From a virus (lineage: Duplodnaviria; Heunggongvirae; Uroviricota; Caudoviricetes), in the IMG/VR virus record IMGVR_UViG_2526164599_000008: 36,480 bases of DNA. The stretch is one strand, 5' to 3'. Under the pieces are notes generated by a model. The model did not search any database. It was given only the letters and a program-made list of their open reading frames with translations, and was not told where the DNA came from. The position numbers were made by a program, and so were the translations under genes. Positions 1,533-33,135 of this stretch are shown piece after piece (position 1 is the stretch's first letter; each line of letters starts with the position of its first letter).

Positions 1533-1922
1533 TTACTCTTTTTTCTCCGTATCTACATCGGGTTCATCAGCAAATAGCTTGCCCTGCATCCGATCCAGTT
1601 CTTCTTTTCTTACCCGCTTAACCACGCTGTAGACCCACTGAAGCGAAACACCAAATTTGCGGGCCAGTTCATGGTGGTTACGTCCGTTAAACTCCCTGAA
1701 GATTTCCCGGTCGCGCTGACTGACCTTCCATACCATGCCCATCGGGAAATAAACGTTTTGCCCGCCCCAGACCTGCATCATGCGGTTCGCGACGGCCTGA
1801 CCAATCTGGTCGGCAATTGCGGGCTCAATATCAATAATCTCGCGAACGGTCTCAGAGGTATGCTGTGCCAGTTCCACCAGGAGTTCCGGCCCTTTACTTC
1901 GAAACTGATTCAGGTCGCTCAT
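1533..1922 (-). CDS. mor: Mor/C-family transcriptional activator of middle/late genes
   Basis: 129 aa. C-terminal block FREFNGRNHHELARKFGVSLQWVYSVVKR resembles the Mor/C helix-turn-helix region. GGGAG Shine-Dalgarno 6 nt upstream of the ATG. Last gene of the leftward early operon. Confidence 0.6.
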   Translation of the reverse strand: MSDLNQFRSKGPELLVELAQHTSETVREIIDIEPAIADQIGQAVANRMMQVWGGQNVYFPMGMVWKVSQRDREIFREFNGRNHHELARKFGVSLQWVYSVVKRVRKEELDRMQGKLFADEPDVDTEKKE

Positions 1923-2771: not shown

Positions 2772-3451
2772 CTGGCCTCCAGTTTCTGTTGTTCCTGCCC
2801 ACTGACCGGGCGGTGCAGTCTGACGTTCTGCCCTTCACGAAACCCCGCATAGCGCGAGGCGTCGCCATTGCGGCTTCTTCCCGGTTTACGCGCCCTGGTG
2901 GTTTGCGTCTGCGGGTATTTATGTTCCAGCCACTGCTGCATCAGTTCACGTTCGTCATCGGTCAGGGCGAAGGACTGTATTTCACTGATAACGGCCAGCA
3001 CCCAGCCTTCAGCAAACTGGTCACCACGGCTGGTACGGGTGGCAGTTTTTATTCTTTTGTTCTGTGCGCTGATATACTGCTGACGCGCCTTTTTCAGCTG
3101 GCGGGCCAGCACTTCCCAGGTGTACGCAGCCAGTGCGGCCCGTTCCCGGTTGCCGTAGAACCCCACACCCGGATATGTGCCGGGGTGAATTATGGAGTTA
3201 ACACCAAATGCCTCGCGGATGATGTTCATCAGGCCCAGCATGTAGCGCGGTGGACGGAGACTGCCTGTCGGCCAGTAATGACTGATGGTTTCATCAATAT
3301 CACTCATGGCAATGTCGGAATGTGTGATGCCGTGAACATCCATCAGTTTACGGGCGCGGCGCAGTGCCAGAGCAGCCTCATACGGGTTGCCGGATGCTGC
3401 CAGCGCCAGCAACTTTTTCAGTTTTTCAATGTGTTTATCCAAGTCTGTCAT
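2768..3451 (-). CDS. DUF2786-like phage protein
   Basis: 227 aa. N-terminal IEKLKKLLALAASGNPYEAALALRRARKLM matches my memory of the DUF2786 signature. Start overlaps the upstream stop. Confidence 0.5.
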   Translation of the reverse strand: MTDLDKHIEKLKKLLALAASGNPYEAALALRRARKLMDVHGITHSDIAMSDIDETISHYWPTGSLRPPRYMLGLMNIIREAFGVNSIIHPGTYPGVGFYGNRERAALAAYTWEVLARQLKKARQQYISAQNKRIKTATRTSRGDQFAEGWVLAVISEIQSFALTDDERELMQQWLEHKYPQTQTTRARKPGRSRNGDASRYAGFREGQNVRLHRPVSGQEQQKLEAR

Positions 3452-3753
3452 TGTTCAGTATCTCCGGTGTACATGACGCCCAGCCGTGCGGCAAGGCGTT
3501 CCAGTTTTTTCTGTTTGTGGAAGTCAATCAGCCGGTCCATCCCCTGAAGGCGCAACTGCTCTGTCATGATTTCCACGTCTGCCAGCTCTGCCGCGAGGTC
3601 ACTTTCACTGCCCTGTCCGTTCAGGTTGCGGGCAGCACAGGCTGCCAGTTCAGCGGCCTCTTCTGTCAGTTTCAGGGCCTGTGCGTCCGGCCCGAAACGC
3701 TGCAGGGCCAGACGGTAGAGGGCGGTGCGGGTGAGTATGGTGTACCGTGTCAT
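3448..3753 (-). CDS. Hypothetical early protein
   Basis: 101-aa ORF, coupled to its neighbours, helical and acidic. No confident family. Confidence 0.4.
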   Translation of the reverse strand: MTRYTILTRTALYRLALQRFGPDAQALKLTEEAAELAACAARNLNGQGSESDLAAELADVEIMTEQLRLQGMDRLIDFHKQKKLERLAARLGVMYTGDTEQ

Positions 3754-3762
3754 GCTGCGCCC

Positions 3763-4035
3763 TCAGTGATTCCGGCTGACGGTGATGTGCAGACCGCCTT
3801 CTGCAGTGGTTTCCATCCGGTACGGCACCTCATGCGCTGCCGTGTGGGTTAGTGTGTTCACCAGTACCTGCAGGGCAGCCGCCTTTCCGTTGGTCGCCAC
3901 AATGGCCTGAGCGGTCATGCTGATTAGCGCCGTCAGGACGTGCTTCACATCGGTGAGGTCGCGGCATTCACACTCGTTGACATAGTGTTCAACAAGGGTT
4001 CGGGTGCGCTGTCGTGCTTCCTGTGGGGTAATCAT
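3763..4035 (-). CDS. Hypothetical early protein
   Basis: 90-aa ORF in the early operon. Start overlaps the upstream stop (4032..4035). Confidence 0.4.
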   Translation of the reverse strand: MITPQEARQRTRTLVEHYVNECECRDLTDVKHVLTALISMTAQAIVATNGKAAALQVLVNTLTHTAAHEVPYRMETTAEGGLHITVSRNH

Positions 4036-10121: not shown

Positions 10122-11129
10122 ATGTCTGAGCAGACCATTGAAGTTAAACACGTTGTAGTTCACATTTTAGACAAACAACAAAATGGAGACGCTTCTGAGA
10201 GATTGAGTCCTGAAGAAGGTCTAGTTACTGAAGCCTCCCAGCGCCTTATAAACGATATTTGTGCAAAATATGCAGGACGCACAGGTAAAGGTTATGGCTA
10301 TTTTGAAGGCGATACGGATAACTATCCTATGGAACGAATGGCTGGGGACTTTCTCGAAGGTGTTGATGATTTCTACCAAAGTTCCTGCCGAATGATGCAT
10401 CACCTGACGGAACGTTCTCAGCGAGAAAACATGGCTACTGGTGGTTATGTTCTTTTTGCAAATATCGTGATAGGACACAATGAACACCTGTTGATAGCTA
10501 TTGTAAGCGCTACCATTGGATCCACTGTCACAGATGATTTTAACATCCAAGATAGTACCTATCTTGATATTGCTAAGCTGCGTATGGCTGGGCGCATTGA
10601 CTTAACCGCGTGGGAAAGTGGCGCAGAGCGCTATATCAGTTTTCTTAAGGGGCAAGGTAATGTTTCAAACTATTTTAAACAGTTCCTCGGCTGTAATGAT
10701 GTCTTAATCGCCAAACGAGAGTCTGAAAAGTTACGTGACGTTTTAAAAGCATTTGCGGCAGAGAAAGGACTTGACGGCGCTGAAAAAGATGCATTTCTTA
10801 AGAGTGCGTTTGAACACTTACATGCACTAAGTAAGGCTGGTGAACCACTTAGTCTTGAAACCCTTGTTAATGCCATTTGGCCCCAGGCTCCCGAGGAGTT
10901 ATCTGGTAAACTTGCTGCTGAAGAGTTGGAGTTATCGGATGGCTTCGTTCCTGATGGTCGAGTCATTCGGGCTCTGGTATCTTTTAAAGGCAAGTCTAAA
11001 TATTGGGAACTTAAGTTTGACCGGGAAGGGAAAACTGAAGGCTATATTGATTATGATCCGGAAACAAATATTATCACCCTACGTAATGTACCTGAAGAAT
11101 TTAGGGAAATGTGGATGACTGAGGTTTAA
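10122..11129 (+). CDS. NdpA/YejK-like nucleoid-associated protein homologue (cargo gene)
   Basis: 335 aa, the same length as E. coli YejK. Blocks GGYVLF, LLIAIVS, YLDIAKL, RIDLTAWESGAERYISFLKG, FKQFLG align by eye with YejK blocks as I remember them. AT-richer than the flanking phage genes. Confidence 0.5.
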   Translation: MSEQTIEVKHVVVHILDKQQNGDASERLSPEEGLVTEASQRLINDICAKYAGRTGKGYGYFEGDTDNYPMERMAGDFLEGVDDFYQSSCRMMHHLTERSQRENMATGGYVLFANIVIGHNEHLLIAIVSATIGSTVTDDFNIQDSTYLDIAKLRMAGRIDLTAWESGAERYISFLKGQGNVSNYFKQFLGCNDVLIAKRESEKLRDVLKAFAAEKGLDGAEKDAFLKSAFEHLHALSKAGEPLSLETLVNAIWPQAPEELSGKLAAEELELSDGFVPDGRVIRALVSFKGKSKYWELKFDREGKTEGYIDYDPETNIITLRNVPEEFREMWMTEV

Positions 11130-11131
11130 TC

Positions 11132-12337
11132 GTGGCGATTTCATTTGAGATGCTGACAGATCTGTATCGTCGTATGGAATTCCAAGAGGGGTTTCGTGTC
11201 GGTTCGCTGTTGCTCTTAGATCAGTCCGATTGTGATCTGGTTGATACTTTGCTTGATGATCCTCGTGAATATGGTCTTTCTATTGATACAGGCACTATCG
11301 CTCCAGGTAACACGATCATCCTACGTGTGACGTCACCACGGAGTGGACTGGGACTTGTGTTTTCCACCCATGAAAAATTGCTAAATGCTCCAAAGCATCA
11401 GTGCCTTGAGCCAGCTAATTACTTCATCCTAGAAACAAAGTTTCGTAATGATGATGAAGATATCCCCGTTTTCATCAGCAACTACCGGAAGATTCTCGAG
11501 TTCGTTAACCTGCTAAAAGAGGCCGCGGCCTACTTTGATAACTCAACTTGTCAGTTAGTTTTTCTGAAAAAAGAAGTTATCAAGCTATTACCGCACTTCG
11601 CTGCAGAAAATGTACAAAATTTGCAAAGAGAGTATCTTGATAACCTTATAGCTTGTTTCAATGATGATACCCATAAGGATCAGAAGCTAGATATTCTGAT
11701 TGAAAGTATCCAAGCAGTTAGTGATGGAATTGATTCACCTCTAGTATTCGCTTATTTACTGGACAATATTCAGCGTCTGCATGAAAAGTTTCTGAAAGGG
11801 TATCGTATCTACTCTTCTGGATTCTCTTATGACAAAGTAATGGATCAACTGCGTGCTGCAAAAGTCGAAGAAATGGGTAAAATCCACAAAGCGTTTTCAG
11901 ATATCCAGAACCATATACTTGGCATTCCTGTTGCCTCTGTTATCGTAGCTACCCAATTCAAAGTGGCTACGAAATGGTCAGGCCAAGGGATAACAAACAC
12001 AATAATTCTTCTGGGATGCATTTTTGCTGCAACGTTAATCTGGCTGGCACTTTCGAACCAGATGCAATCTATAAAGGCCTTAGGCGAAGAAATTGAATAC
12101 AAAGAAAAACAGATTAATAAGGAATATTCCTTCATTAAAGATGACGTGGCTGGTGTATTTAGCAGTATTTCTGCGCGACTAGACACGCAGAAACGTACGT
12201 TCTGGATTATACGTGGTGTTCTAGTTATGGGAATTATTACCGCTATCACTGTTTATTTTTGGTACACAAAACCAGCCCTTGACTTCATGCAGTACTTGAT
12301 TCACTGCATGAAGTCTTACTATTCGGTCAAAAGTTGA
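11132..12337 (+). CDS. Unknown protein with two C-terminal transmembrane helices, operonic with the NdpA-like gene
   Basis: 401 aa. GTG start 2 nt after the upstream stop with GAGG upstream. N-terminal soluble region of about 285 aa has no motif I recognise. Hydrophobic helices ITNTIILLGCIFAATLIWLALS and FWIIRGVLVMGIITAITVYFWY. Confidence 0.55.
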   Translation: MAISFEMLTDLYRRMEFQEGFRVGSLLLLDQSDCDLVDTLLDDPREYGLSIDTGTIAPGNTIILRVTSPRSGLGLVFSTHEKLLNAPKHQCLEPANYFILETKFRNDDEDIPVFISNYRKILEFVNLLKEAAAYFDNSTCQLVFLKKEVIKLLPHFAAENVQNLQREYLDNLIACFNDDTHKDQKLDILIESIQAVSDGIDSPLVFAYLLDNIQRLHEKFLKGYRIYSSGFSYDKVMDQLRAAKVEEMGKIHKAFSDIQNHILGIPVASVIVATQFKVATKWSGQGITNTIILLGCIFAATLIWLALSNQMQSIKALGEEIEYKEKQINKEYSFIKDDVAGVFSSISARLDTQKRTFWIIRGVLVMGIITAITVYFWYTKPALDFMQYLIHCMKSYYSVKS

Positions 12338-13097
12338 GGATAATGAGTTCCTTCTTGCGACTGGATTTGCCAGTGATCTTGAGGTTGTAGCTGATATCAA
12401 CCGACTGAATATTTAGACCGTTGAATGCCTGCCGCATTTCCGGGATATCGTTCACCGATATAATCATCTTCCCTTTGATCCTGCGTGCTAAATCTGCCAT
12501 ATGATCATAATTTTCTAGTCCGAACTCCACACCATAACCTTCCGTTCCCCAGTATGGAGGGTCACAGTAGAACAACGTATGCGGGCGATCATATCGTTCT
12601 ATGCACTGTTGCCAGTCCATGTGTTCTATGACCGTTCTGGAAAGCCGCAGGTGTGCCGCTGACAGTTCTTCTTCAATACGCAGCAGGTTGAAGCGTGGCG
12701 GGGATATGGTGGAGGTACCAAAGCTGTGCTCCGCCACCTTGCCTCCAAACGCCTGCTTCTGAAGGTAGTAGAACCGTGCTGCACGCTGGATATCCGTCAG
12801 TGTTTCTTCCGGGGTGATCTGCAGCCATTTGTAGATCTGCCGGCTGACCAGCGCCCATTTGAACTGGCGTACAAATTCTTCCAGATGATGTTTTACCACC
12901 CGATACAGGTTCACCAGTTCACCGTTGATATCATTAATGACTTCGATCTTGCCGGGTACCTTAAGAAAATAGAGCGCTGCTGCCCCACAAAACGGCTCCA
13001 CATAACATTCATGCGCCGGAAACAGCGGCAGGATGTGTTTTGCAAGGCGGCGTTTGCCACCAATCCATGGAACGATGGGTAATGTCTGCATTTTCAT
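12327..13097 (-). CDS. DNA N6-adenine methyltransferase, Dam-like
   Basis: 256 aa. AdoMet motif VEPFCGAAALYF and catalytic DPPY. Opening PWIGGKRRL matches the Dam family. Convergent with, and overlapping by 11 nt, the membrane-protein gene. Confidence 0.8.
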   Translation of the reverse strand: MKMQTLPIVPWIGGKRRLAKHILPLFPAHECYVEPFCGAAALYFLKVPGKIEVINDINGELVNLYRVVKHHLEEFVRQFKWALVSRQIYKWLQITPEETLTDIQRAARFYYLQKQAFGGKVAEHSFGTSTISPPRFNLLRIEEELSAAHLRLSRTVIEHMDWQQCIERYDRPHTLFYCDPPYWGTEGYGVEFGLENYDHMADLARRIKGKMIISVNDIPEMRQAFNGLNIQSVDISYNLKITGKSSRKKELIILNF

Positions 13098-13344
13098 AAT
13101 CTGTAAGCCTTTTACAATTATAAAAAATATGGCAGGCTAGTCTGGTCTCGCGAGACTGACTGAACCTCGGTCGGCTCACAGCGCATTCCTGTGGGGCGAT
13201 GGCCAGCCCGGTGTTCGGGTACCGGGCTGGTCGTTCTTTCAAAGTCATCATGCAGTGCACGTTTACATCTTCACTATTAACGCTGTTTAAAATCCGTATC
13301 CCGCCACATTTGTGATGCTGTCTCCACCAAACGAGGAGACACAC
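13098..13344. promoter_or_regulatory. Intergenic region upstream of the lysis/late operon; candidate late promoter
   Basis: About 250 bp non-coding. Contains the 12-bp palindrome GTCTCGCGAGAC and the stem-loop CCAGCCCGGT...ACCGGGCTGG. AGGAG Shine-Dalgarno before the ATG at 13345. Confidence 0.4.
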
Positions 13345-13695
13345 ATGAAAAACCTGAAAAAATTCATTCCCCCTGTTAAAAAACCTCGCCTCAGCGGCTG
13401 GCTGCTGACCTCAGTGCTGTTGCTGGGCATCATCGCTCTGGTCTCGCCACAGCAGTTGCCTGTTGTGATCTACAAGCTGGCACTTATCACGCTGGCAGCA
13501 GTGCTGGGTTACTGGCTTGACCGTTCGCTCTTCCCCAAAGCCCGTCCCGGTCAGTACCTGAAACATGACGACAGGCTGATGGCTGAAGGGCGTTTCCCGG
13601 TACAGACCGGCCTTCACCTGGTGTTTTCTGCTGCGTTAATCCGCCGTGCACTGATTGTTGCAGCGGTCTGCCTGGCTGTGGCAACAGGACTGTGA
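13345..13695 (+). CDS. Holin-like small membrane protein
   Basis: Track ORF 13312..13695 trimmed to the ATG at 13345. About 116 aa with two or three hydrophobic helices. Sits immediately upstream of the endolysin. Confidence 0.45.
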   Translation: MKNLKKFIPPVKKPRLSGWLLTSVLLLGIIALVSPQQLPVVIYKLALITLAAVLGYWLDRSLFPKARPGQYLKHDDRLMAEGRFPVQTGLHLVFSAALIRRALIVAAVCLAVATGL

Positions 13696-14426
13696 CCATG
13701 AACTGGCCTCAAATCACCCTCATTATTCTGTTCGCCTTTGGTCTGGGCGTAACCGCCATCAGACACGGAGAACCACGTAACGATAAATACAGCTTCTGGT
13801 GGCAGCTTGCTGGCAACCTGGTGATTGTCTGGCTGCTCTGGTGTGGCGGCTTTTTCAGCCAGGCATGCGCAGCGCAGCCCCCGCAGGCTGCGCTGCAGTA
13901 TCGCGATGATGTGATCCGTAATGCCCGGCTTGAATGGGGACTGTCTGCGCCGGTGGCCGATTTCGCCGCGCAACTGCATCAGGAAAGCGGCTGGCGACCT
14001 GATGCGATCTCGCCGGCTGGCGCTCAGGGACTGGCGCAGTTCATGCCTGCCACTGCCGACTGGATAAGCCAGTTGATACCGATGCTGAGCAGTCGTGAGC
14101 CGTTTAATCCGGCATGGGCTATCCGGGCGCTGGTCAGCTATGACCGCTGGCTGTGGCAGCGTGTCAGCGCCGCCAGTGACTGCGAGCGTATGGCCATGAC
14201 ACTGTCGGGCTATAACGGTGGTCTGGGCTGGGTACAACGGGACAGGCGGCTTGCATCACAGAAAGGTCTGGACAGCACCCGCTGGTTCGGACATGTCGCC
14301 ACGGTGAATGCCGGACGCAATGCGGCCAGCTGGCGGGAGAACCGCCATTATCCGCAGCGCATCCTGCGCGAACTGGCACCGCGATATCTCACATGGGGAG
14401 GCAGCAGTTGTGCGGCATCTGGTTAA
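13692..14426 (+). CDS. Endolysin, lytic transglycosylase (SLT domain), possibly signal-anchor-release type
   Basis: SLT signature ESGWRPDAISPAGAQGLAQFMPATA. Hydrophobic N-terminus ITLIILFAFGLGVTAI. Overlaps the upstream stop. Confidence 0.75.
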   Translation: MTMNWPQITLIILFAFGLGVTAIRHGEPRNDKYSFWWQLAGNLVIVWLLWCGGFFSQACAAQPPQAALQYRDDVIRNARLEWGLSAPVADFAAQLHQESGWRPDAISPAGAQGLAQFMPATADWISQLIPMLSSREPFNPAWAIRALVSYDRWLWQRVSAASDCERMAMTLSGYNGGLGWVQRDRRLASQKGLDSTRWFGHVATVNAGRNAASWRENRHYPQRILRELAPRYLTWGGSSCAASG

Positions 14427-15060
14427 AAAGCTGCCGTGGCGCGGCATTCTGCTGGCCATTCTTATCAATGCCTTTCTGGTCGGCCTGTATGCCATGGGAT
14501 ACAGAAGTGGTCATGACTCTGCAAAGCGTGACGGTGATACCGCGCTCAGTCAGTTGCAGTCAGCATTTGACGCGTACAAAACGGAGCAGGCAACGCTTGA
14601 GAATGCTGCGCTGCGGGCCTGGGCCAGACGGTATCAGGAGCAGGTGGCCGCCGGGCAGCGGGCTGAAGCCGGTTATCTTGAGCAGATTGCTCAACTGGAG
14701 AGCCGGAACAAACAACTACAGGGGCAAATTAACGATGTCACACAGCGCTGGATTGATGAAAAAGGTAAGAGCCATCCCATTGAGTGCGTGTTTACTCGCG
14801 GTTTCGTGCGCCAGTACAACGCCGCACTCGGATATGACAACGCATCCGTCGACACCGGTCATTCAGACTCAGTTGCCGCCGCTGGCACCCGCTCTGGCAC
14901 AGCGACCGGGCAACCTGAAACCACTGACACCCGGTTACGCGATTCGGGTGTCTCCCAGCGTGACGTTCTCGCCAACATCATCGACAACGCAGGACAATGT
15001 CGTCGCTGGCGGAACCAGATAAACGCGTTACTGGATGAACGGGAAGGATTACAGAAATGA
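14410..15060 (+). CDS. i-spanin (Rz-like)
   Basis: Track ORF 14308..15060 trimmed to a GTG at 14410 preceded by GGGGAGG. N-terminal TM helix ILLAILINAFLVGLYAM followed by a coiled-coil-like region. Immediately follows the endolysin. Confidence 0.6.
   Translation: MRHLVKKLPWRGILLAILINAFLVGLYAMGYRSGHDSAKRDGDTALSQLQSAFDAYKTEQATLENAALRAWARRYQEQVAAGQRAEAGYLEQIAQLESRNKQLQGQINDVTQRWIDEKGKSHPIECVFTRGFVRQYNAALGYDNASVDTGHSDSVAAAGTRSGTATGQPETTDTRLRDSGVSQRDVLANIIDNAGQCRRWRNQINALLDEREGLQK
14756..15022 (+). CDS. o-spanin (Rz1-like lipoprotein) embedded in the +1 frame of the i-spanin gene
   Basis: Internal ATG of track ORF 14393..15022. MKKVRAIPLSACLLAVSCAS carries a lipobox (AVSC). Pro-rich mature part. 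Wholly contained in the i-spanin gene. Confidence 0.6.
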   Translation: MKKVRAIPLSACLLAVSCASTTPHSDMTTHPSTPVIQTQLPPLAPALAQRPGNLKPLTPGYAIRVSPSVTFSPTSSTTQDNVVAGGTR

Positions 15061-20590: not shown

Positions 20591-20804
20591 GTTTTCTCTC
20601 TTCAGGCGGGTGATTTATCATTGCCAGCGAATGAGGGGCTGTATTACCTTTATAAAGGCTTTACAGCCTCTGTTTTATAACCGCCTCCGGTTCACCGTAT
20701 TGCTTTCCCTGTCCTTCTCCCCTGATGTTTTCTAAAGCAGATTAAAATCGCCGGGCCTGCATTTCTCACAAACTGTCTCCGACAACATAACGCGGGACAG
20801 CAAA
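20591..20804. promoter_or_regulatory. Intergenic gap in the head module with nested palindrome; candidate late promoter and/or terminator
   Basis: About 214 bp non-coding. GGCTGTA...CCTTTATAAAGG...TACAGCC followed by CTGTTTTAT. Mu has a C-dependent promoter upstream of gene I at the equivalent position. Confidence 0.4.
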
Positions 20805-21920
20805 ATGTCAGCCATTCACATTTTTAAAGCCGGTACTCATACCGATATGCACGGCAAAAAACTGCCGTTCACGCCAGACGATCTTGCCGCCTGCGTGAAA
20901 GCCTATGACCCGTCCGTCCATGAAGCACCACTCGTGATTGGTCATCCCAGAACGGAAGACCCGGCGTGGGGCTGGGTGAAAGCCCTGTCGCTCAGCGGCG
21001 TCGATCTGATGGCAGAGCCTGCCCAGCTGGACCCGCAGTTTGCTGAGATGGTCACCGACGGACGATTCAAAAAAGTGTCCGCCTCTTTCTACCTCCCGGA
21101 TTCACCGTCCAATCCGAAGCCCGGCGTGCTCTACCTGCGCCATGTGGGCTTTCTCGGGGCACAGCCACCTTCCGTCAAGGGGCTGAAACAGGTGTCCTTC
21201 AGTGAGCAGGAAGAAGGTGTGGTGGAGTTCGCCGACTGGCAGGCCATCACGAATGCCTCCCTGTGGGGAAAGCTGCGCGATTTTCTGATCGCCCGCTTCA
21301 GTCTGGACGAAGCAGAAAAAGTCCTGCCGGAATGGCAGCTCAACAATCTGCGCGAAGAGGCGTACCGCGACACACCGTCGCAGGATGCAGCAGGTGCGCA
21401 ATTCAGTGAGACAGGCCAGGTGCCGTCTTCCGCAAGTAACGAGGAATCATCGATGACAAAAGAAGAGATTGAAGCCCTTCAGGAGGAGAACCGCCGCCTG
21501 AAGCAGCAGGCTGCTGATCGCGATGCGCGTGATGCACAGGTCAGACAGGAGCAACTGCATAAGGACAATGTGGCCTTTGCAGAAAAACTGGTCGCAGAGG
21601 GCCGTCTGGCTCCCCGCGCCTCCTCCGTGGTGGTTGCCCTGCTGGATGCCGTCGCCGGTGGCGACAAGCCGGTGGAGTTTGCTGAGGGGGAAAGCCGCAC
21701 ACCGCTGGCCACCGCCTTTCGTTCATTGCTCTCCGACGGGGAGCCGGTGATGAATTTCGCCGAACAGGCCACAAAAGAGCGTGTCGGCGACACGGTGAAG
21801 GTGGATGTGGCAGAGTTTGCGGAAGCCGATCCTGAGCGTCTGGCCCTGCATCAGAAAGCAGTGGCCCTGTCCAAAAAAGAAGGCATCAGCTATGAGGCTG
21901 CTGTCGCACGCTGCCTGTAA
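20805..21920 (+). CDS. Head maturation protease / scaffold (Mu I-like)
   Basis: 371 aa, N-terminal region resembles Mu I. C-terminal half is charged and helical (scaffold-like). Confidence 0.6.
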   Translation: MSAIHIFKAGTHTDMHGKKLPFTPDDLAACVKAYDPSVHEAPLVIGHPRTEDPAWGWVKALSLSGVDLMAEPAQLDPQFAEMVTDGRFKKVSASFYLPDSPSNPKPGVLYLRHVGFLGAQPPSVKGLKQVSFSEQEEGVVEFADWQAITNASLWGKLRDFLIARFSLDEAEKVLPEWQLNNLREEAYRDTPSQDAAGAQFSETGQVPSSASNEESSMTKEEIEALQEENRRLKQQAADRDARDAQVRQEQLHKDNVAFAEKLVAEGRLAPRASSVVVALLDAVAGGDKPVEFAEGESRTPLATAFRSLLSDGEPVMNFAEQATKERVGDTVKVDVAEFAEADPERLALHQKAVALSKKEGISYEAAVARCL

Positions 21921-24399: not shown

Positions 24400-25816
24400 C
24401 TATCTGCATGGTCCCGAAACCATTGAGGTGGAAAACGGAGCCCGCCCGGTTAAAACGGTGAAATCTGCCGTTATTGGCCTGATTGGTACCGCCCCGATGG
24501 GGGATGTCAATACGCTGGTACAGTGCCTGTCTGAGAAAGACGCAGCGGCATTTGGCAGCCAGTTCACCGGCTTTACCATTCCGCAGGCGCTGGATGCGAT
24601 TTATGACCATGGTGCAGGCACCGTTCTGGTCATTAACGTCCTCGACCCGGCGAAACATAAAACGGCGATCGAGGATGAGGTGGTTACCTTTGACAAATCG
24701 ACAGGGCAGGCCAGACTGGCGCATCCGGTTGTCGCTAATGTGGTGGTGAAAAACAGTGAAGGCAGCACCACCCACACGGCGAACACGGACTACCGTGTTG
24801 ATGCGCAGGCGGGTGTGCTCACGAACCTGGGCAAGGCTATTGAGGCCGGTGGCAGCGTGAAGGTGAGCTATGAGTACGCGGACCCGTCGAAGGTGACTGC
24901 GGCGGACATCATCGGCGGGGTGAACAGCGCCGGAAACCGAACCGGCATGAAGCTGCTTAACGACAGCTTCAACCTGTACGGCTATTTCGCCAAAATTCTG
25001 ATTGCGCCGGTGTTCTGCACCCAGAAGAGTGTCGCAGTTGAGCTTATCGCCATGGCAGAGAAGCTGGGCGCGGTAACCTACATTGATGCGCCTGTCGGTA
25101 CCACCTTTGCACAGGCTCTGGCAGGTCGTGGCCCGGAAGGCACCATCAACTTCAATACCAGCTCCGACCGCGTCCGTCTGTGCTATCCGCATGTGAAGGT
25201 ATATGACCCGGTGACAAACACAGAGCGTCTGGAGCCGCTCAGCCAGCGTGCAGCAGGTCTGCGTGCCAGAGTCGATCTGGACAAGGGCTACTGGTGGTCA
25301 TCCTCCAATCAGGAGATTCTGGGGATCACCGGCGTGGAGCGCCAGCTGTCCGCGATGATTGATGACCCGCAGAGTGAGGTAAACCTGCTTAACGAACAGG
25401 GGATCACCACGGTATTCAGCAGTTACGGCAGCGGCCTTCGTCTGTGGGGTAACCGGACGGCAGCATGGCCAACGGTCACCCATATGCGTAACTTTGAGAA
25501 CGTTCGCCGCACCGGTGATGTGATCAACGAGTCCATTCGTTATTTCAGCCAGCAGTACATCGACATGCCGATTACTCAGGCGCTGATTGATGCACTGACG
25601 GAGTCGGTCAACGCCTACGGTCGCAAAATGACTGGTGATGGTGCGGTACTGGGCTTCCGTTGCTGGTTTGATCCGGCCCGCAATCCGGAGACGGAGCTGG
25701 CCGCCGGGCACCTGTTGCTGAGCTACAAATATACGCCACCACCGCCGCTGGAGCGACTGACGTTTGAGACTGAGATCACCTCGGAATACCTGTTAACCCT
25801 GAAAGGGGGCAACTGA
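24389..25816 (+). CDS. Tail sheath protein
   Basis: 475 aa followed directly by a tube-sized gene. Contractile-tail gene order sheath, tube, chaperone, tape measure. Confidence 0.75.
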   Translation: MAANYLHGPETIEVENGARPVKTVKSAVIGLIGTAPMGDVNTLVQCLSEKDAAAFGSQFTGFTIPQALDAIYDHGAGTVLVINVLDPAKHKTAIEDEVVTFDKSTGQARLAHPVVANVVVKNSEGSTTHTANTDYRVDAQAGVLTNLGKAIEAGGSVKVSYEYADPSKVTAADIIGGVNSAGNRTGMKLLNDSFNLYGYFAKILIAPVFCTQKSVAVELIAMAEKLGAVTYIDAPVGTTFAQALAGRGPEGTINFNTSSDRVRLCYPHVKVYDPVTNTERLEPLSQRAAGLRARVDLDKGYWWSSSNQEILGITGVERQLSAMIDDPQSEVNLLNEQGITTVFSSYGSGLRLWGNRTAAWPTVTHMRNFENVRRTGDVINESIRYFSQQYIDMPITQALIDALTESVNAYGRKMTGDGAVLGFRCWFDPARNPETELAAGHLLLSYKYTPPPPLERLTFETEITSEYLLTLKGGN

Positions 25817-26337
25817 TGTCAAAGATTGAGATAAACCGCATCACGAATGCCAACATCTATCTGGATGGTACTAACCTGCTGGGACGGGCTGAGGAAGTTA
25901 AACTCCCCGATGTCTCCATGATTATGCAGGAACACAAGGCGCTGGGGATGGTGGGTAAGGTGGAACTCCCGGCTGGTTTTGACAAACTGGAAGGCGAAAT
26001 CAAATGGAACAGCTTTTACCGCGATGCGATGCTGTCTGCCGCTAACCCGTACAGGTCGCTGGCACTGCAGTGTCGTTCCAGCGTCCAGCGCTACAGCTCG
26101 CAGGGGCTGATTGACGAAATCCCGCTGGTCACCTTCCTGACGATTATGTTCAAGAAGAACCCTCTGGGGACGTTCAAACAGCACGAGAACGCCGAGTTCT
26201 CCAGTAGCTTCACCTGCACGTATATCAGACAGGTACTGGATGGTGAAGAGCTGCTGCAACTGGACTATCTGGCCAACATCTTCCGGGTCGGCGGTGTTGA
26301 TCAACTGACTGACTACCGTATCAATATCGGGGGCTGA
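25816..26337 (+). CDS. Tail tube protein
   Basis: 173 aa directly after the sheath gene. Confidence 0.7.
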   Translation: MSKIEINRITNANIYLDGTNLLGRAEEVKLPDVSMIMQEHKALGMVGKVELPAGFDKLEGEIKWNSFYRDAMLSAANPYRSLALQCRSSVQRYSSQGLIDEIPLVTFLTIMFKKNPLGTFKQHENAEFSSSFTCTYIRQVLDGEELLQLDYLANIFRVGGVDQLTDYRINIGG

Positions 26338-26621: not shown

Positions 26622-26718
26622 CATCACAGGGGCTCCGGCCCCTTCTTCTTAATCTCCTTTAATATCCGTCACGCGCTTCTCCCGACATACTGCCCTGAAC
26701 TTACACAGGAGCACAATC

Positions 26719-26991
26719 ATGTCACAGACCCCATCCGATACTTTTAAATTGTCTTATCCCTTCACCACTGCTGCAGGCACCAGAATTGAGCAGGTTGAAC
26801 TGAAACGCCTGACGGTAAAAGACCTGAAGCAGGTGCGCAAAATCAGCAAAAACCCGGCAGACTGGGACGAACCGCTGATTGCCCGCAGTACTGGTCTTCT
26901 CCCGGAAGATCTCGACAATATGGATCTGGCTGATTACCTGCAGTTACAGAAACGATTTCAGCTCATCACGGGGATGGGTGAGAGCAACTAG
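26719..26991 (+). CDS. Tail assembly chaperone (P2 gpE-like)
   Basis: 90 aa upstream of the tape measure. Overlapped by a second ORF, the hallmark of tail chaperone frameshift pairs. Confidence 0.6.
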   Translation: MSQTPSDTFKLSYPFTTAAGTRIEQVELKRLTVKDLKQVRKISKNPADWDEPLIARSTGLLPEDLDNMDLADYLQLQKRFQLITGMGESN

Positions 26992-27136
26992 GGCGCTGAC
27001 GCAGGCGCAGGGGCTGCTGGCGAGATGGTTCCGGTTTCAGCCGGGGGAGATTGATGCCCTCGATACTGACGATCTGGAGATGTGGCTGGAGCAGGCTGAA
27101 GAGCAAATAAAAAGCGAGTACGGCGACAAATCATAG
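26879..27136 (+). CDS. Frameshift extension of the tail assembly chaperone (E' equivalent), +1 frame relative to the chaperone
   Basis: Overlaps the chaperone ORF by 113 nt in the +1 frame and ends about 75 nt before the tape measure. Probably expressed only as a frameshift fusion. Confidence 0.5.
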   Translation: MPAVLVFSRKISTIWIWLITCSYRNDFSSSRGWVRATRALTQAQGLLARWFRFQPGEIDALDTDDLEMWLEQAEEQIKSEYGDKS

Positions 27137-32733: not shown

Positions 32734-32787
32734 GCTTTTTAAACGCCTTTAATATCAGCGTTCCCGCACGGGGGCAATACTGCCCCC

Positions 32788-33135
32788 ATGAAAACAACCT
32801 CAGTATTCTGGCAACCGACCCTGCAGGCTCCCGGCGAAATTGTCCGGGGGCTGGATGATATCCGGCAGGCGATTCAAATTATCCTGCGGACTCCCCGCGG
32901 CAGCGACCCGCATCGCCCGGAGTTCGGCAGCAATCTGCATCTTTATATCGACTGGCCTGTAGACCGGGCCATTCCGCATGTGGTGCGCGAATCCGTCGAT
33001 GCCATCCGGCGCTGGGAGCCCCGCTGCCAGCTTATGTCAGTTAAACCCGCCGTCGACGGCGAACATCTTACGCTCCGGGTGAGCTGGAAAGGCTCAGACG
33101 GACAGACCCGGACTCAGGAGCTGCTATGGCGCTGA
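32788..33135 (+). CDS. Baseplate protein W-like (gp25/GPW family)
   Basis: 115 aa. GLDDIRQAIQIILRTPRGSDPHRPEFGSNL matches the GPW/gp25 signature. Confidence 0.7.
   Translation: MKTTSVFWQPTLQAPGEIVRGLDDIRQAIQIILRTPRGSDPHRPEFGSNLHLYIDWPVDRAIPHVVRESVDAIRRWEPRCQLMSVKPAVDGEHLTLRVSWKGSDGQTRTQELLWR

Follow-up and report, generated by a model that had tools for sequence, protein, structure and literature searches.

A conserved structured RNA gene linked to dam and a predicted Mor-type late promoter in the dam–lysis gap of a BcepMu-type prophage

The 247-bp gap between an adenine methyltransferase gene (dam) and the lysis genes of a Mu-like prophage is, on balance, made up of two independent units: a small RNA gene that belongs to the dam cassette and the first late promoter, Plys (Table 1). 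The dam-linked structured RNA gene is previously undescribed and widely conserved. Its architecture on the plus strand, found in more than 130 distinct homologues, consists of a 5′ hairpin, a long-range helix around two further hairpins, and a U-rich tail. We found no description of a dam-linked RNA in the literature. A search of the whole window (the 36,480-nt stretch of DNA analysed here, IMG/VR record IMGVR_UViG_2526164599_000008) against Rfam 15 gave no match at the gathering score, and at E ≤ 10 the sole match in positions 13050–13400 was 11-bit SraB noise.

The window is a BcepMu-type prophage of E. coli, and related phages are classed under Bcepmuvirus. A 2.2-kb query (12300–14500) is 100% identical to a prophage in E. 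coli DLI.5a, and about 12% (636/5426) of complete E. coli genomes carry the dam/RNA stretch. The leftward early genes start at ~9334 and end with the gene of a Mor-family activator (1533–1922, minus strand); rightward genes encode a repressor-like HTH protein, a nucleoid-associated protein and a 401-aa protein. The holin, SLT endolysin and spanin genes, followed by the structural genes, all run rightward from 13345. As dam lies on the minus strand, the region studied is therefore a divergent gap between dam and the lysis cassette; the original prediction had placed the gap correctly between methyltransferase and lysis operon, but the methyltransferase points away from the lysis genes.

Several features of the surrounding prophage were recorded in passing. 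A sodium:solute symporter gene, truncated according to RefSeq, contains the left end of the prophage (729–1500), consistent with transposition of the Mu type into a host gene. The cargo at 10122–12337, which separates the repressor-like gene from dam, consists of an NA37 nucleoid-associated protein and the 401-aa membrane-like protein; the C-terminus of the latter has a weak match (E = 8e-5) to KwaA, a protein of the Kiwa defence system. The 3′ ends of the 401-aa gene and dam overlap by 11 bp. Just past the dam stop codon, within the end of the convergent 401-aa gene, a perfect 10-bp hairpin (12284–12312) is possibly the dam terminator.

Table 1. Features of the dam–lysis gap and the late promoter sites of the window (positions are those of the window)
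Feature	Position	Strand	Details
dam, D12-class N6-adenine DNA methyltransferase	12327–13097	−	PF02086 E = 7e-28; PADLOC MTase_II E = 4e-115; RefSeq "DNA adenine methylase"
Predicted RNA promoter	13111–13138	+	−35 TTTACA 13111–13116; 16-nt spacer; TG 13130–13131; −10 CAGGCT 13133–13138; hexamer profile
H1 outer stem	13139–13142 with 13158–13161	+	covaries
H1 apex (palindrome)	13145–13156	+	GTCTCGCGAGAC; predicted 5′-terminal hairpin; paired with compensatory changes
P2, long-range helix enclosing H2 and H3	13162–13236	+	GAAC 13162–13165 with GTTC 13233–13236; covarying pairs GAAC/GUUC, GAGC/GCUC, GCGC/GCGC
H2	13170–13200	+	CACAG 13177–13181 with CTGTG 13189–13193; variable 7-nt loop; G·U-rich extension
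H3, 10-bp hairpin of the original prediction with U-rich tail	13202–13241	+	terminator-like RNA 3′ end; 12 pairs, 13202–13213 with 13220–13231; covariation
Variable joint	13242–13273		gap homology splits at query positions 144/150 and 177; extra DNA in most E. coli relatives
Predicted Mor-binding box	13276–13294	+	ATTAACGCTGTTTAAAATC; TTAA cores 13277–13280 and 13287–13290; centred at about −42.5; kept upstream of holin
Plys core and leader	13314–13344	+	−10 GATGCT 13314–13319; GTCTCC 13320–13325; predicted +1 ~13326; SD GGAG 13335–13338; then holin ATG 13345
Late promoter site	13278	+	composite motif; precedes holin
Late promoter site	20733	+	composite motif; predicted region 20733–20804; precedes head-region gene at 20805 (no Pfam match)
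Late promoter site	26650	+	composite motif; predicted region 26650–26718; precedes tail chaperone
Late promoter site	32740	+	composite motif; predicted region 32740–32790; precedes gp25-like baseplate gene

The two features that had originally been singled out in the gap are both present, a 12-bp perfect palindrome and a hairpin with a 10-bp stem (arms CCAGCCCGGT at 13203–13212 and ACCGGGCTGG at 13221–13230, loop 8 nt). The window holds 8 perfect 12-bp palindromes where first-order Markov simulations give 9.7 ± 3.7, and the palindrome by itself is therefore not above chance; perfect 10-bp hairpins number 5 against 0.29 expected. The gap folds more stably than its shuffles on both strands, with z = −3.2 on the plus strand and z = −4.1 on the minus strand. 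In relatives belonging to many genera, palindrome and hairpin both remain paired, their arms having changed in a compensatory manner. They are parts of one folded plus-strand RNA and do not constitute the protein site and attenuator of late transcription that had been proposed.

Using the endolysin as anchor, we collected 79 loci from other species and aligned the dam–holin gap from 18, representing about ten genera. The left 145 bases of the gap behave in this alignment as a folded RNA and not as a protein site. RNAalifold on 29 sequences yielded four elements, denoted H1, P2, H2 and H3 (Table 1). The long-range helix P2 was recovered independently as seven pairs, with GC/CG and AU/GC swaps, when RNAalifold was applied to a MAFFT alignment of 46 divergent members. 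The core of H2 is invariant in enterobacterial copies and compensated in Vibrio phage VP882 (CACAUG/CAUGUG) and other lineages, and the main stem of H3 has double changes in 8/10 pairs. Across the 29 sequences, 95.3% of cells pair, compared with 86.2% after shuffling and 36–50% with partners slid by 1–3 columns. Changes on both sides of a pair were seen for 18/35 pairs in these sequences, and double changes for 31/36 pairs in a model-fitted alignment of 84 hits.

The strand under selection can be read from the wobble pairs. Among 70 unique model-aligned hits, G·U or U·G cells outnumber A·C or C·A cells (302 versus 34), and selection therefore acts on a plus-strand RNA, opposite to dam. The extension of H2 is mostly G·U pairs, which form on the plus strand only. 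The covariance model scores 113 bits on the plus strand of the window and 13 bits on the minus strand. Two other readings of the region were rejected. Inspection of the 18-locus alignment by eye showed that the small open reading frames of the gap (22 codons on the minus strand, 41 codons on the plus strand) are not conserved, and a boxA/nut-like reading of CGCTCTT in the tail was discarded because those bases covary as P2.

The RNA goes with dam and not with the lysis operon, and the linkage is rigid. Every strong covariance-model match among the anchor loci (at least 74 bits, n = 31) falls in a dam-bearing locus, and dam-less relatives gave three weak matches only (E 2e-5 to 1). In a set of 82 hits, comprising IMG/VR loci found by the H2 pattern and named phages, dam is on the strand opposite to the RNA in 79. 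The dam start lies 13–46 nt, usually 34, from the RNA 5′ end, with three B3-like cases at 174–239 nt; in B3, the com gene sits between dam and RNA. The distance from RNA to holin ranges from 88 to 2407 nt. When 80 loci were picked by Dam similarity alone (65–100% identity), 68 had the RNA at the dam-adjacent place. The RNA is found next to dam in the unrelated phages VP882 and B3 (the latter from Pseudomonas, with its copy at ~25725–25838 of NC_006548), in Pseudomonas phage Bise and in Klebsiella phage KP12, with a weaker match next to dam in Curvibacter phage TJ1; the covariance model found no copy in Mu, the com–mom region included.

The two units of the gap part at the variable joint. For most E. 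coli relatives, the homology is interrupted between ~13241/13247 and 13274; the RNA then stays with dam, and the late promoter with holin. Many relatives carry 0.6–2.4 kb of extra DNA here, between the RNA and the lysis genes, with opposite-strand genes where annotated; annotated inserts are present in PhiKM and KP12. Lying between the predicted RNA terminator and the late-promoter box, the joint is a preferred site of cargo insertion (loci L002, L004, L005, L008, L011 and L012). A decayed second copy of the RNA 3′ half was also seen beside the holin promoter in L005, L006 and L008.

Existing annotations overlie the RNA gene in three of the phages. "Hypothetical proteins" cover it in VP882 (L084; gp36, NC_009016 20588–20920) and in B3 (L085; ORF46, possibly ORF45), and an N-terminally extended Dam overlaps it in PhiKM (L002; Dam 2948–3802). 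These hypothetical proteins and the extended Dam are probably annotation artefacts. Two ideas about the cassette as a whole were set aside. A plasmid leading-region or single-stranded-DNA promoter was considered, and the cassette occurs on only 12 plasmid records, 9 of them predicted non-mobilizable. A retron reading came from a reverse transcriptase beside the RNA in Bise; that gene is on the opposite strand, and none is annotated in the prophage region examined.

Upstream of the palindrome, the hexamer at 13133–13138 varies across homologues like a −10 element, from which we infer a promoter for the RNA. Over 132 unique homologues, the second position is A in 130 and the sixth is T in 128, and the variants include TAGGCT, CAGGCT (the window), TAGAAT, TAGACT and TATACT. 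A TGn extension precedes the hexamer in about half of the lineages inspected. The RNA start is predicted at ~13145, the first base of the palindrome, and a perfect palindrome begins 6–8 nt after the −10 hexamer in 90/104 homologues. Two other promoter candidates, CTGTAA-16-AAAAAT and the TTTTCA-16-TACAAT of a promoter scan, are not conserved beyond close relatives, and a possible further promoter, convergent and located in the right flank of H1, was dropped as its hexamer is not conserved. The variants TAGAAT, TATACT and TAGCCT, which fit a −10 hexamer, weaken a further reading in which H1 is extended by AGGCU/AGCCU and AGGCU imitates or occludes the ribosome-binding site of dam.

On the other strand, a T and an A stand opposite the A and T of this hexamer, and the dam strand therefore reads TAGCCT (13139 to 13134). 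The dam start is predicted at ~13127, 18 bp from the RNA start, and this arrangement suggests that RNA and dam may share a bidirectional −10 element. Symmetric bidirectional promoters have divergent starts ~18 bp apart and share −11A/−7T (Warman/Grainger; PMC10268837). As in those σ70 promoters, −11A/−7T of the RNA −10 are paired to −7T/−11A of the dam-strand hexamer, and the predicted starts are 18 bp apart. They differ in that the divergent product here is a conserved structured RNA with its own predicted terminator and not an incidental transcript, and in that −35 and TG support exists on the RNA side only, with both starts being predictions. The dam-side promoter has no recognisable −35 and no TG extension, which makes the bidirectional promoter the weakest step of the model. 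Such a geometry would explain the rigid spacing between RNA and dam.

The 3′ end is likewise predicted. A terminator scan called H3 and its tail in the homologue of locus L058 (tail GCTTTTTCCC, plus strand) and did not call the copy of the window (tail TCGTTCTTTC); the H3 hairpin is strong and covarying. Both RNA ends and the dam start are thus predictions from the sequence. On the dam strand, 13104–13128 hold an A/U-rich inverted repeat (UUUUCA...UGAAAA) upstream of the dam ribosome-binding site, compensated in Brenneria to UUUUCG...CGAAAA. In the predicted dam mRNA, this repeat would fold into a hairpin at the 5′ end.

We propose that the RNA acts as an insulator and a cis-antisense regulator of the dam cassette. 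From the −10 CAGGCT, back-to-back with dam, polymerase would make a rightward RNA of ~97 nt (~13145 to ~13241). Together with its terminator, the RNA would keep rightward transcription that starts at the shared promoter from reaching the neighbouring genes, here the lysis genes. The RNA would be complementary along its whole length to every transcript running into dam from upstream, and against such transcripts it would also act in antisense, as a cis regulator of dam. Three observations constrain the function. The RNA is held at a fixed distance from dam, and its predicted terminator faces whatever lies upstream of dam. In VP882, B3 and TJ1, genes on the same strand precede dam (they are tail genes in VP882 and B3), and transcripts entering dam from there would cross the RNA gene in antisense. 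As the predicted RNA and dam starts diverge, overlap with dam mRNA would arise only via read-through transcripts.

Cis-encoded antisense RNAs are established regulators in mobile elements and restriction–modification genes, for example IS10 RNA-OUT, CopA of R1 and Rna0/Rna1 of EcoRI. The dam-linked RNA resembles these in being short and highly structured, in coming from the strand opposite to the 5′ region of a gene whose overexpression is potentially harmful, and in sharing a mobile cassette with that gene. It differs from them in that the overlap with dam mRNA is putative and via read-through, and in its long-range helix and conserved junction, which are unusual for the class. The conserved junction bases, the conserved H2 and the palindromic H1 exceed the needs of simple insulation, and the RNA probably does something more specific. 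The three-helix junction, together with conservation at the junction and in H2, suggests a role such as protein binding or the recognition of targets in trans.

These same observations bear on an alternative that we regard as unlikely, though the strongest of those considered, in which the RNA acts in trans or binds a protein (for instance Dam, a host factor or an RNA chaperone), the targets lie outside the cassette, and the linkage to dam reflects nothing but co-expression from one promoter. Conservation of the junction bases and of the H2 sequence goes beyond the demands of base pairing, the three helices meet in a junction instead of forming simple stem-loops, and phage sRNAs with host and phage targets are known, such as VpdS of VP882. 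However, we found no conserved single-stranded seed, a crude energy scan of full-length duplexes against the start regions of the window gave nothing above background, and the U tail is short for an Hfq-type sRNA. VpdS, an Hfq-binding regulatory sRNA, has a reported length of ~50 nt; the dam-adjacent copy of the present RNA in VP882, at ~20857–20968 of NC_009016 (minus strand), may or may not be VpdS.

The palindrome of H1 poses a separate puzzle for the insulator and antisense model. In most lineages, H1 including its loop is perfectly palindromic as DNA, with more than 20 different palindrome sequences, and an RNA hairpin needs no self-complementary loop. Within the H1 region, the longest perfect palindrome is 10 bp or more in 97/132 sequences; this length is attained in the H2 region in none and in the H3 region in two. 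Although the outer stem of H1 covaries, the predicted RNA start leaves out its 5′ arm, so that either the start is further upstream or the stem acts in other transcripts or as DNA. Together, the perfect palindrome and the mismatch between outer stem and start leave room for a role at the DNA level or on both strands.

H1 could accordingly act as DNA, as an operator or cruciform over both divergent promoters or as a site for recombination or mobility of the dam cassette, a reading that is compatible with the RNA model for H2, H3 and P2 and that we hold to be improbable. Besides the concentration of palindromes in H1, it draws on the position of H1 at +1 to +12 of the predicted RNA promoter, on a G·U strand asymmetry that is weaker in H1 than elsewhere, and on the different positions of the cassette in different phage types. 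Against it, no DNA-binding gene co-varies with the cassette, the H1 sequence is too variable for a host factor, and wobble pairs of the outer stem in some lineages favour a plus-strand RNA.

The second unit of the gap is the late promoter. A block upstream of the holin gene, ACTATTAACGCnGTTTAAAATC, is conserved in dam-bearing and dam-less relatives alike. A search pattern derived from Plys alone had 8 matches in the window against 1.66 expected. Four of these, all on the plus strand, match exactly the composite motif TAA-N6-TTAA-W-ATC, followed after 19 nt by nAnnCT, which had 0 matches in 100 shuffles and was partly defined after seeing, and partly from, those sites. The spacing from box to −10 is 19 nt at all four sites, whose −10 hexamers are GATGCT, CAAACT, CATACT and AATACT, and none of the four has a TTGACA-like −35 hexamer 16–18 nt upstream of the −10. 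The ATG of the gp25-like gene (32788) falls exactly on the predicted +1, which supports the spacing and suggests that the gp25-like mRNA may be leaderless. The tail assembly chaperone downstream of the third site (26719–27136), marked by RefSeq as a pseudogene because of an internal stop, adjoins a GpE-like open reading frame, and the two look like the usual programmed frameshift pair, not a broken gene.

With +1 set 7 nt after the −10, the TTAA-N6-TTAA box of Plys is centred at 13283.5, or −42.5 from the predicted +1 (13326), within 1 bp of Mu. Mu C and Mor bind 16-bp dyads centred at −43.5 in promoters that have a −10 and lack a −35 (PMC2582627, PMC4390567). The Mor-family protein of the prophage matches PF08765 with E = 1.3e-43, and it is the one Mor/C-family gene annotated there. 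The predicted late promoters share with those of Mu (Plys, PI, PP and Pmom via C; Pm via Mor) a −10 with no −35 and a dyad centred at about −43. They share with Mu also the number of four promoters per genome, placed before lysis, head and tail/baseplate operons, and the presence of an encoded Mor/C-family activator. They differ from Mu in the box TTAA-N6-TTAA, which is the BcepMu-type lineage's own, and in a −6 to −1 region that doubles as an anti-ribosome-binding-site arm. As only one Mor/C-family gene is annotated, there may be a single activation step and not Mu's cascade of Mor and then C.

We predict that the true first late promoter is Plys (13276–13326) and that its activator site is the TTAA box and not the palindrome. 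The Mor-family activator would bind the box and recruit σ70 polymerase to the −10 GATGCT, with transcription starting near 13326. The expectation that the gap houses a rightward late promoter is borne out, at a position downstream of both features that had been flagged for it. Some 75–80 bp upstream of the predicted late start, a short block at 13246–13253 (ATCATG here, CCATACTG in many relatives) is kept in dam-less loci too. Its minus strand reads as a −10-like CAnnAT and could mark a leftward promoter that shares the Mor box.

It is very improbable that the palindrome binds a Mor-like activator or a repressor of the late promoter and that the hairpin attenuates or terminates the late transcript, as first proposed. 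Late transcription must indeed begin within the gap, and a dyad that is perfect even through the loop suits a dimeric DNA-binding protein. But the other three late promoters lack the palindrome and share a different box, and close lineages with an unchanged late box have different palindrome sequences. The palindrome travels with dam and not with the lysis genes, also in phages without Mor. Both features lie upstream of the predicted late start. The hairpin is terminator-like, as had been suggested, but from this position it cannot attenuate the late transcript and would instead end a short dam-side transcript.

Least credible is a cis-acting leader of the late operon, either a put-like antiterminator or a short transcript of the lambda PR′/6S type read through on induction: the RNA does lie just upstream of the lysis genes in the same orientation, with a constitutive-looking promoter followed by a terminator, but HK022 put-type elements act in cis on the operon immediately downstream, whereas the RNA is separated from holin by 0.6–2.4 kb of extra DNA in most E. 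coli relatives, faces tail genes with no adjacent lysis genes in VP882 and B3, is followed by a separate Mor-type promoter, and matches no Rfam family.

Plys has a further conserved feature between its −10 and +1. The GTCTCC at this place is complementary to the holin ribosome-binding site GGAGAC (pairing region 13319–13341). RNA that includes GTCTCC folds over the ribosome-binding site with −7 to −16 kcal/mol in most of the more than 20 loci (one outlier, −2.8), and RNA that starts at +1 is essentially unfolded (0 to −3 kcal/mol). The arms of the fold-back covary across genera (GUUUCC/GGAAAC, GGCCUCC/GGAGGCU). The hairpin is possible only in RNA that starts upstream of +1; by virtue of this complementarity, read-through RNA would hide the site, which would stay open in RNA made from Plys. 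Arms of the same kind, 6–8 bases long, are found just upstream of the predicted starts of the late promoters at 20733 and 26650 (20773–20800 and 26690–26712).

In IS10 and IS50, translation of transposase from outside transcripts is limited by fold-back inhibition. We read the arm at Plys as a block of this kind on translation of read-through transcripts, like that of IS10. As in IS10/IS50, a site-pairing arm lies just upstream of the start at Plys, 20733 and 26650, and only read-through RNA could hide the site; the differences are that the arms are located at phage late promoters and are known here from sequence and folding calculations.

The dam-associated RNA might, tentatively, be placed in a new structured regulatory class, integral to a mobile phage methylase cassette, that senses or sets Dam expression or acts with the enzyme. 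In that case, the H1 palindrome, perfect whatever its sequence, would point to a mechanism not yet recognised, for instance dimerisation of the RNA or a signal that works as both DNA and RNA and is shared by two divergent transcripts.

Many phages of other hosts carry this stretch too, among them the model phages VP882 and B3, in which small "hypothetical protein" annotations cover it. For BcepMu-type phages, the analysis provides a testable late-promoter motif and a simple design that would block read-through translation. If the RNA controls or insulates phage Dam, it bears on how temperate phages silence a potentially mutagenic enzyme and lethal lysis genes in lysogens, on how cargo cassettes move between phage types, and on the annotation of prophage sRNAs.
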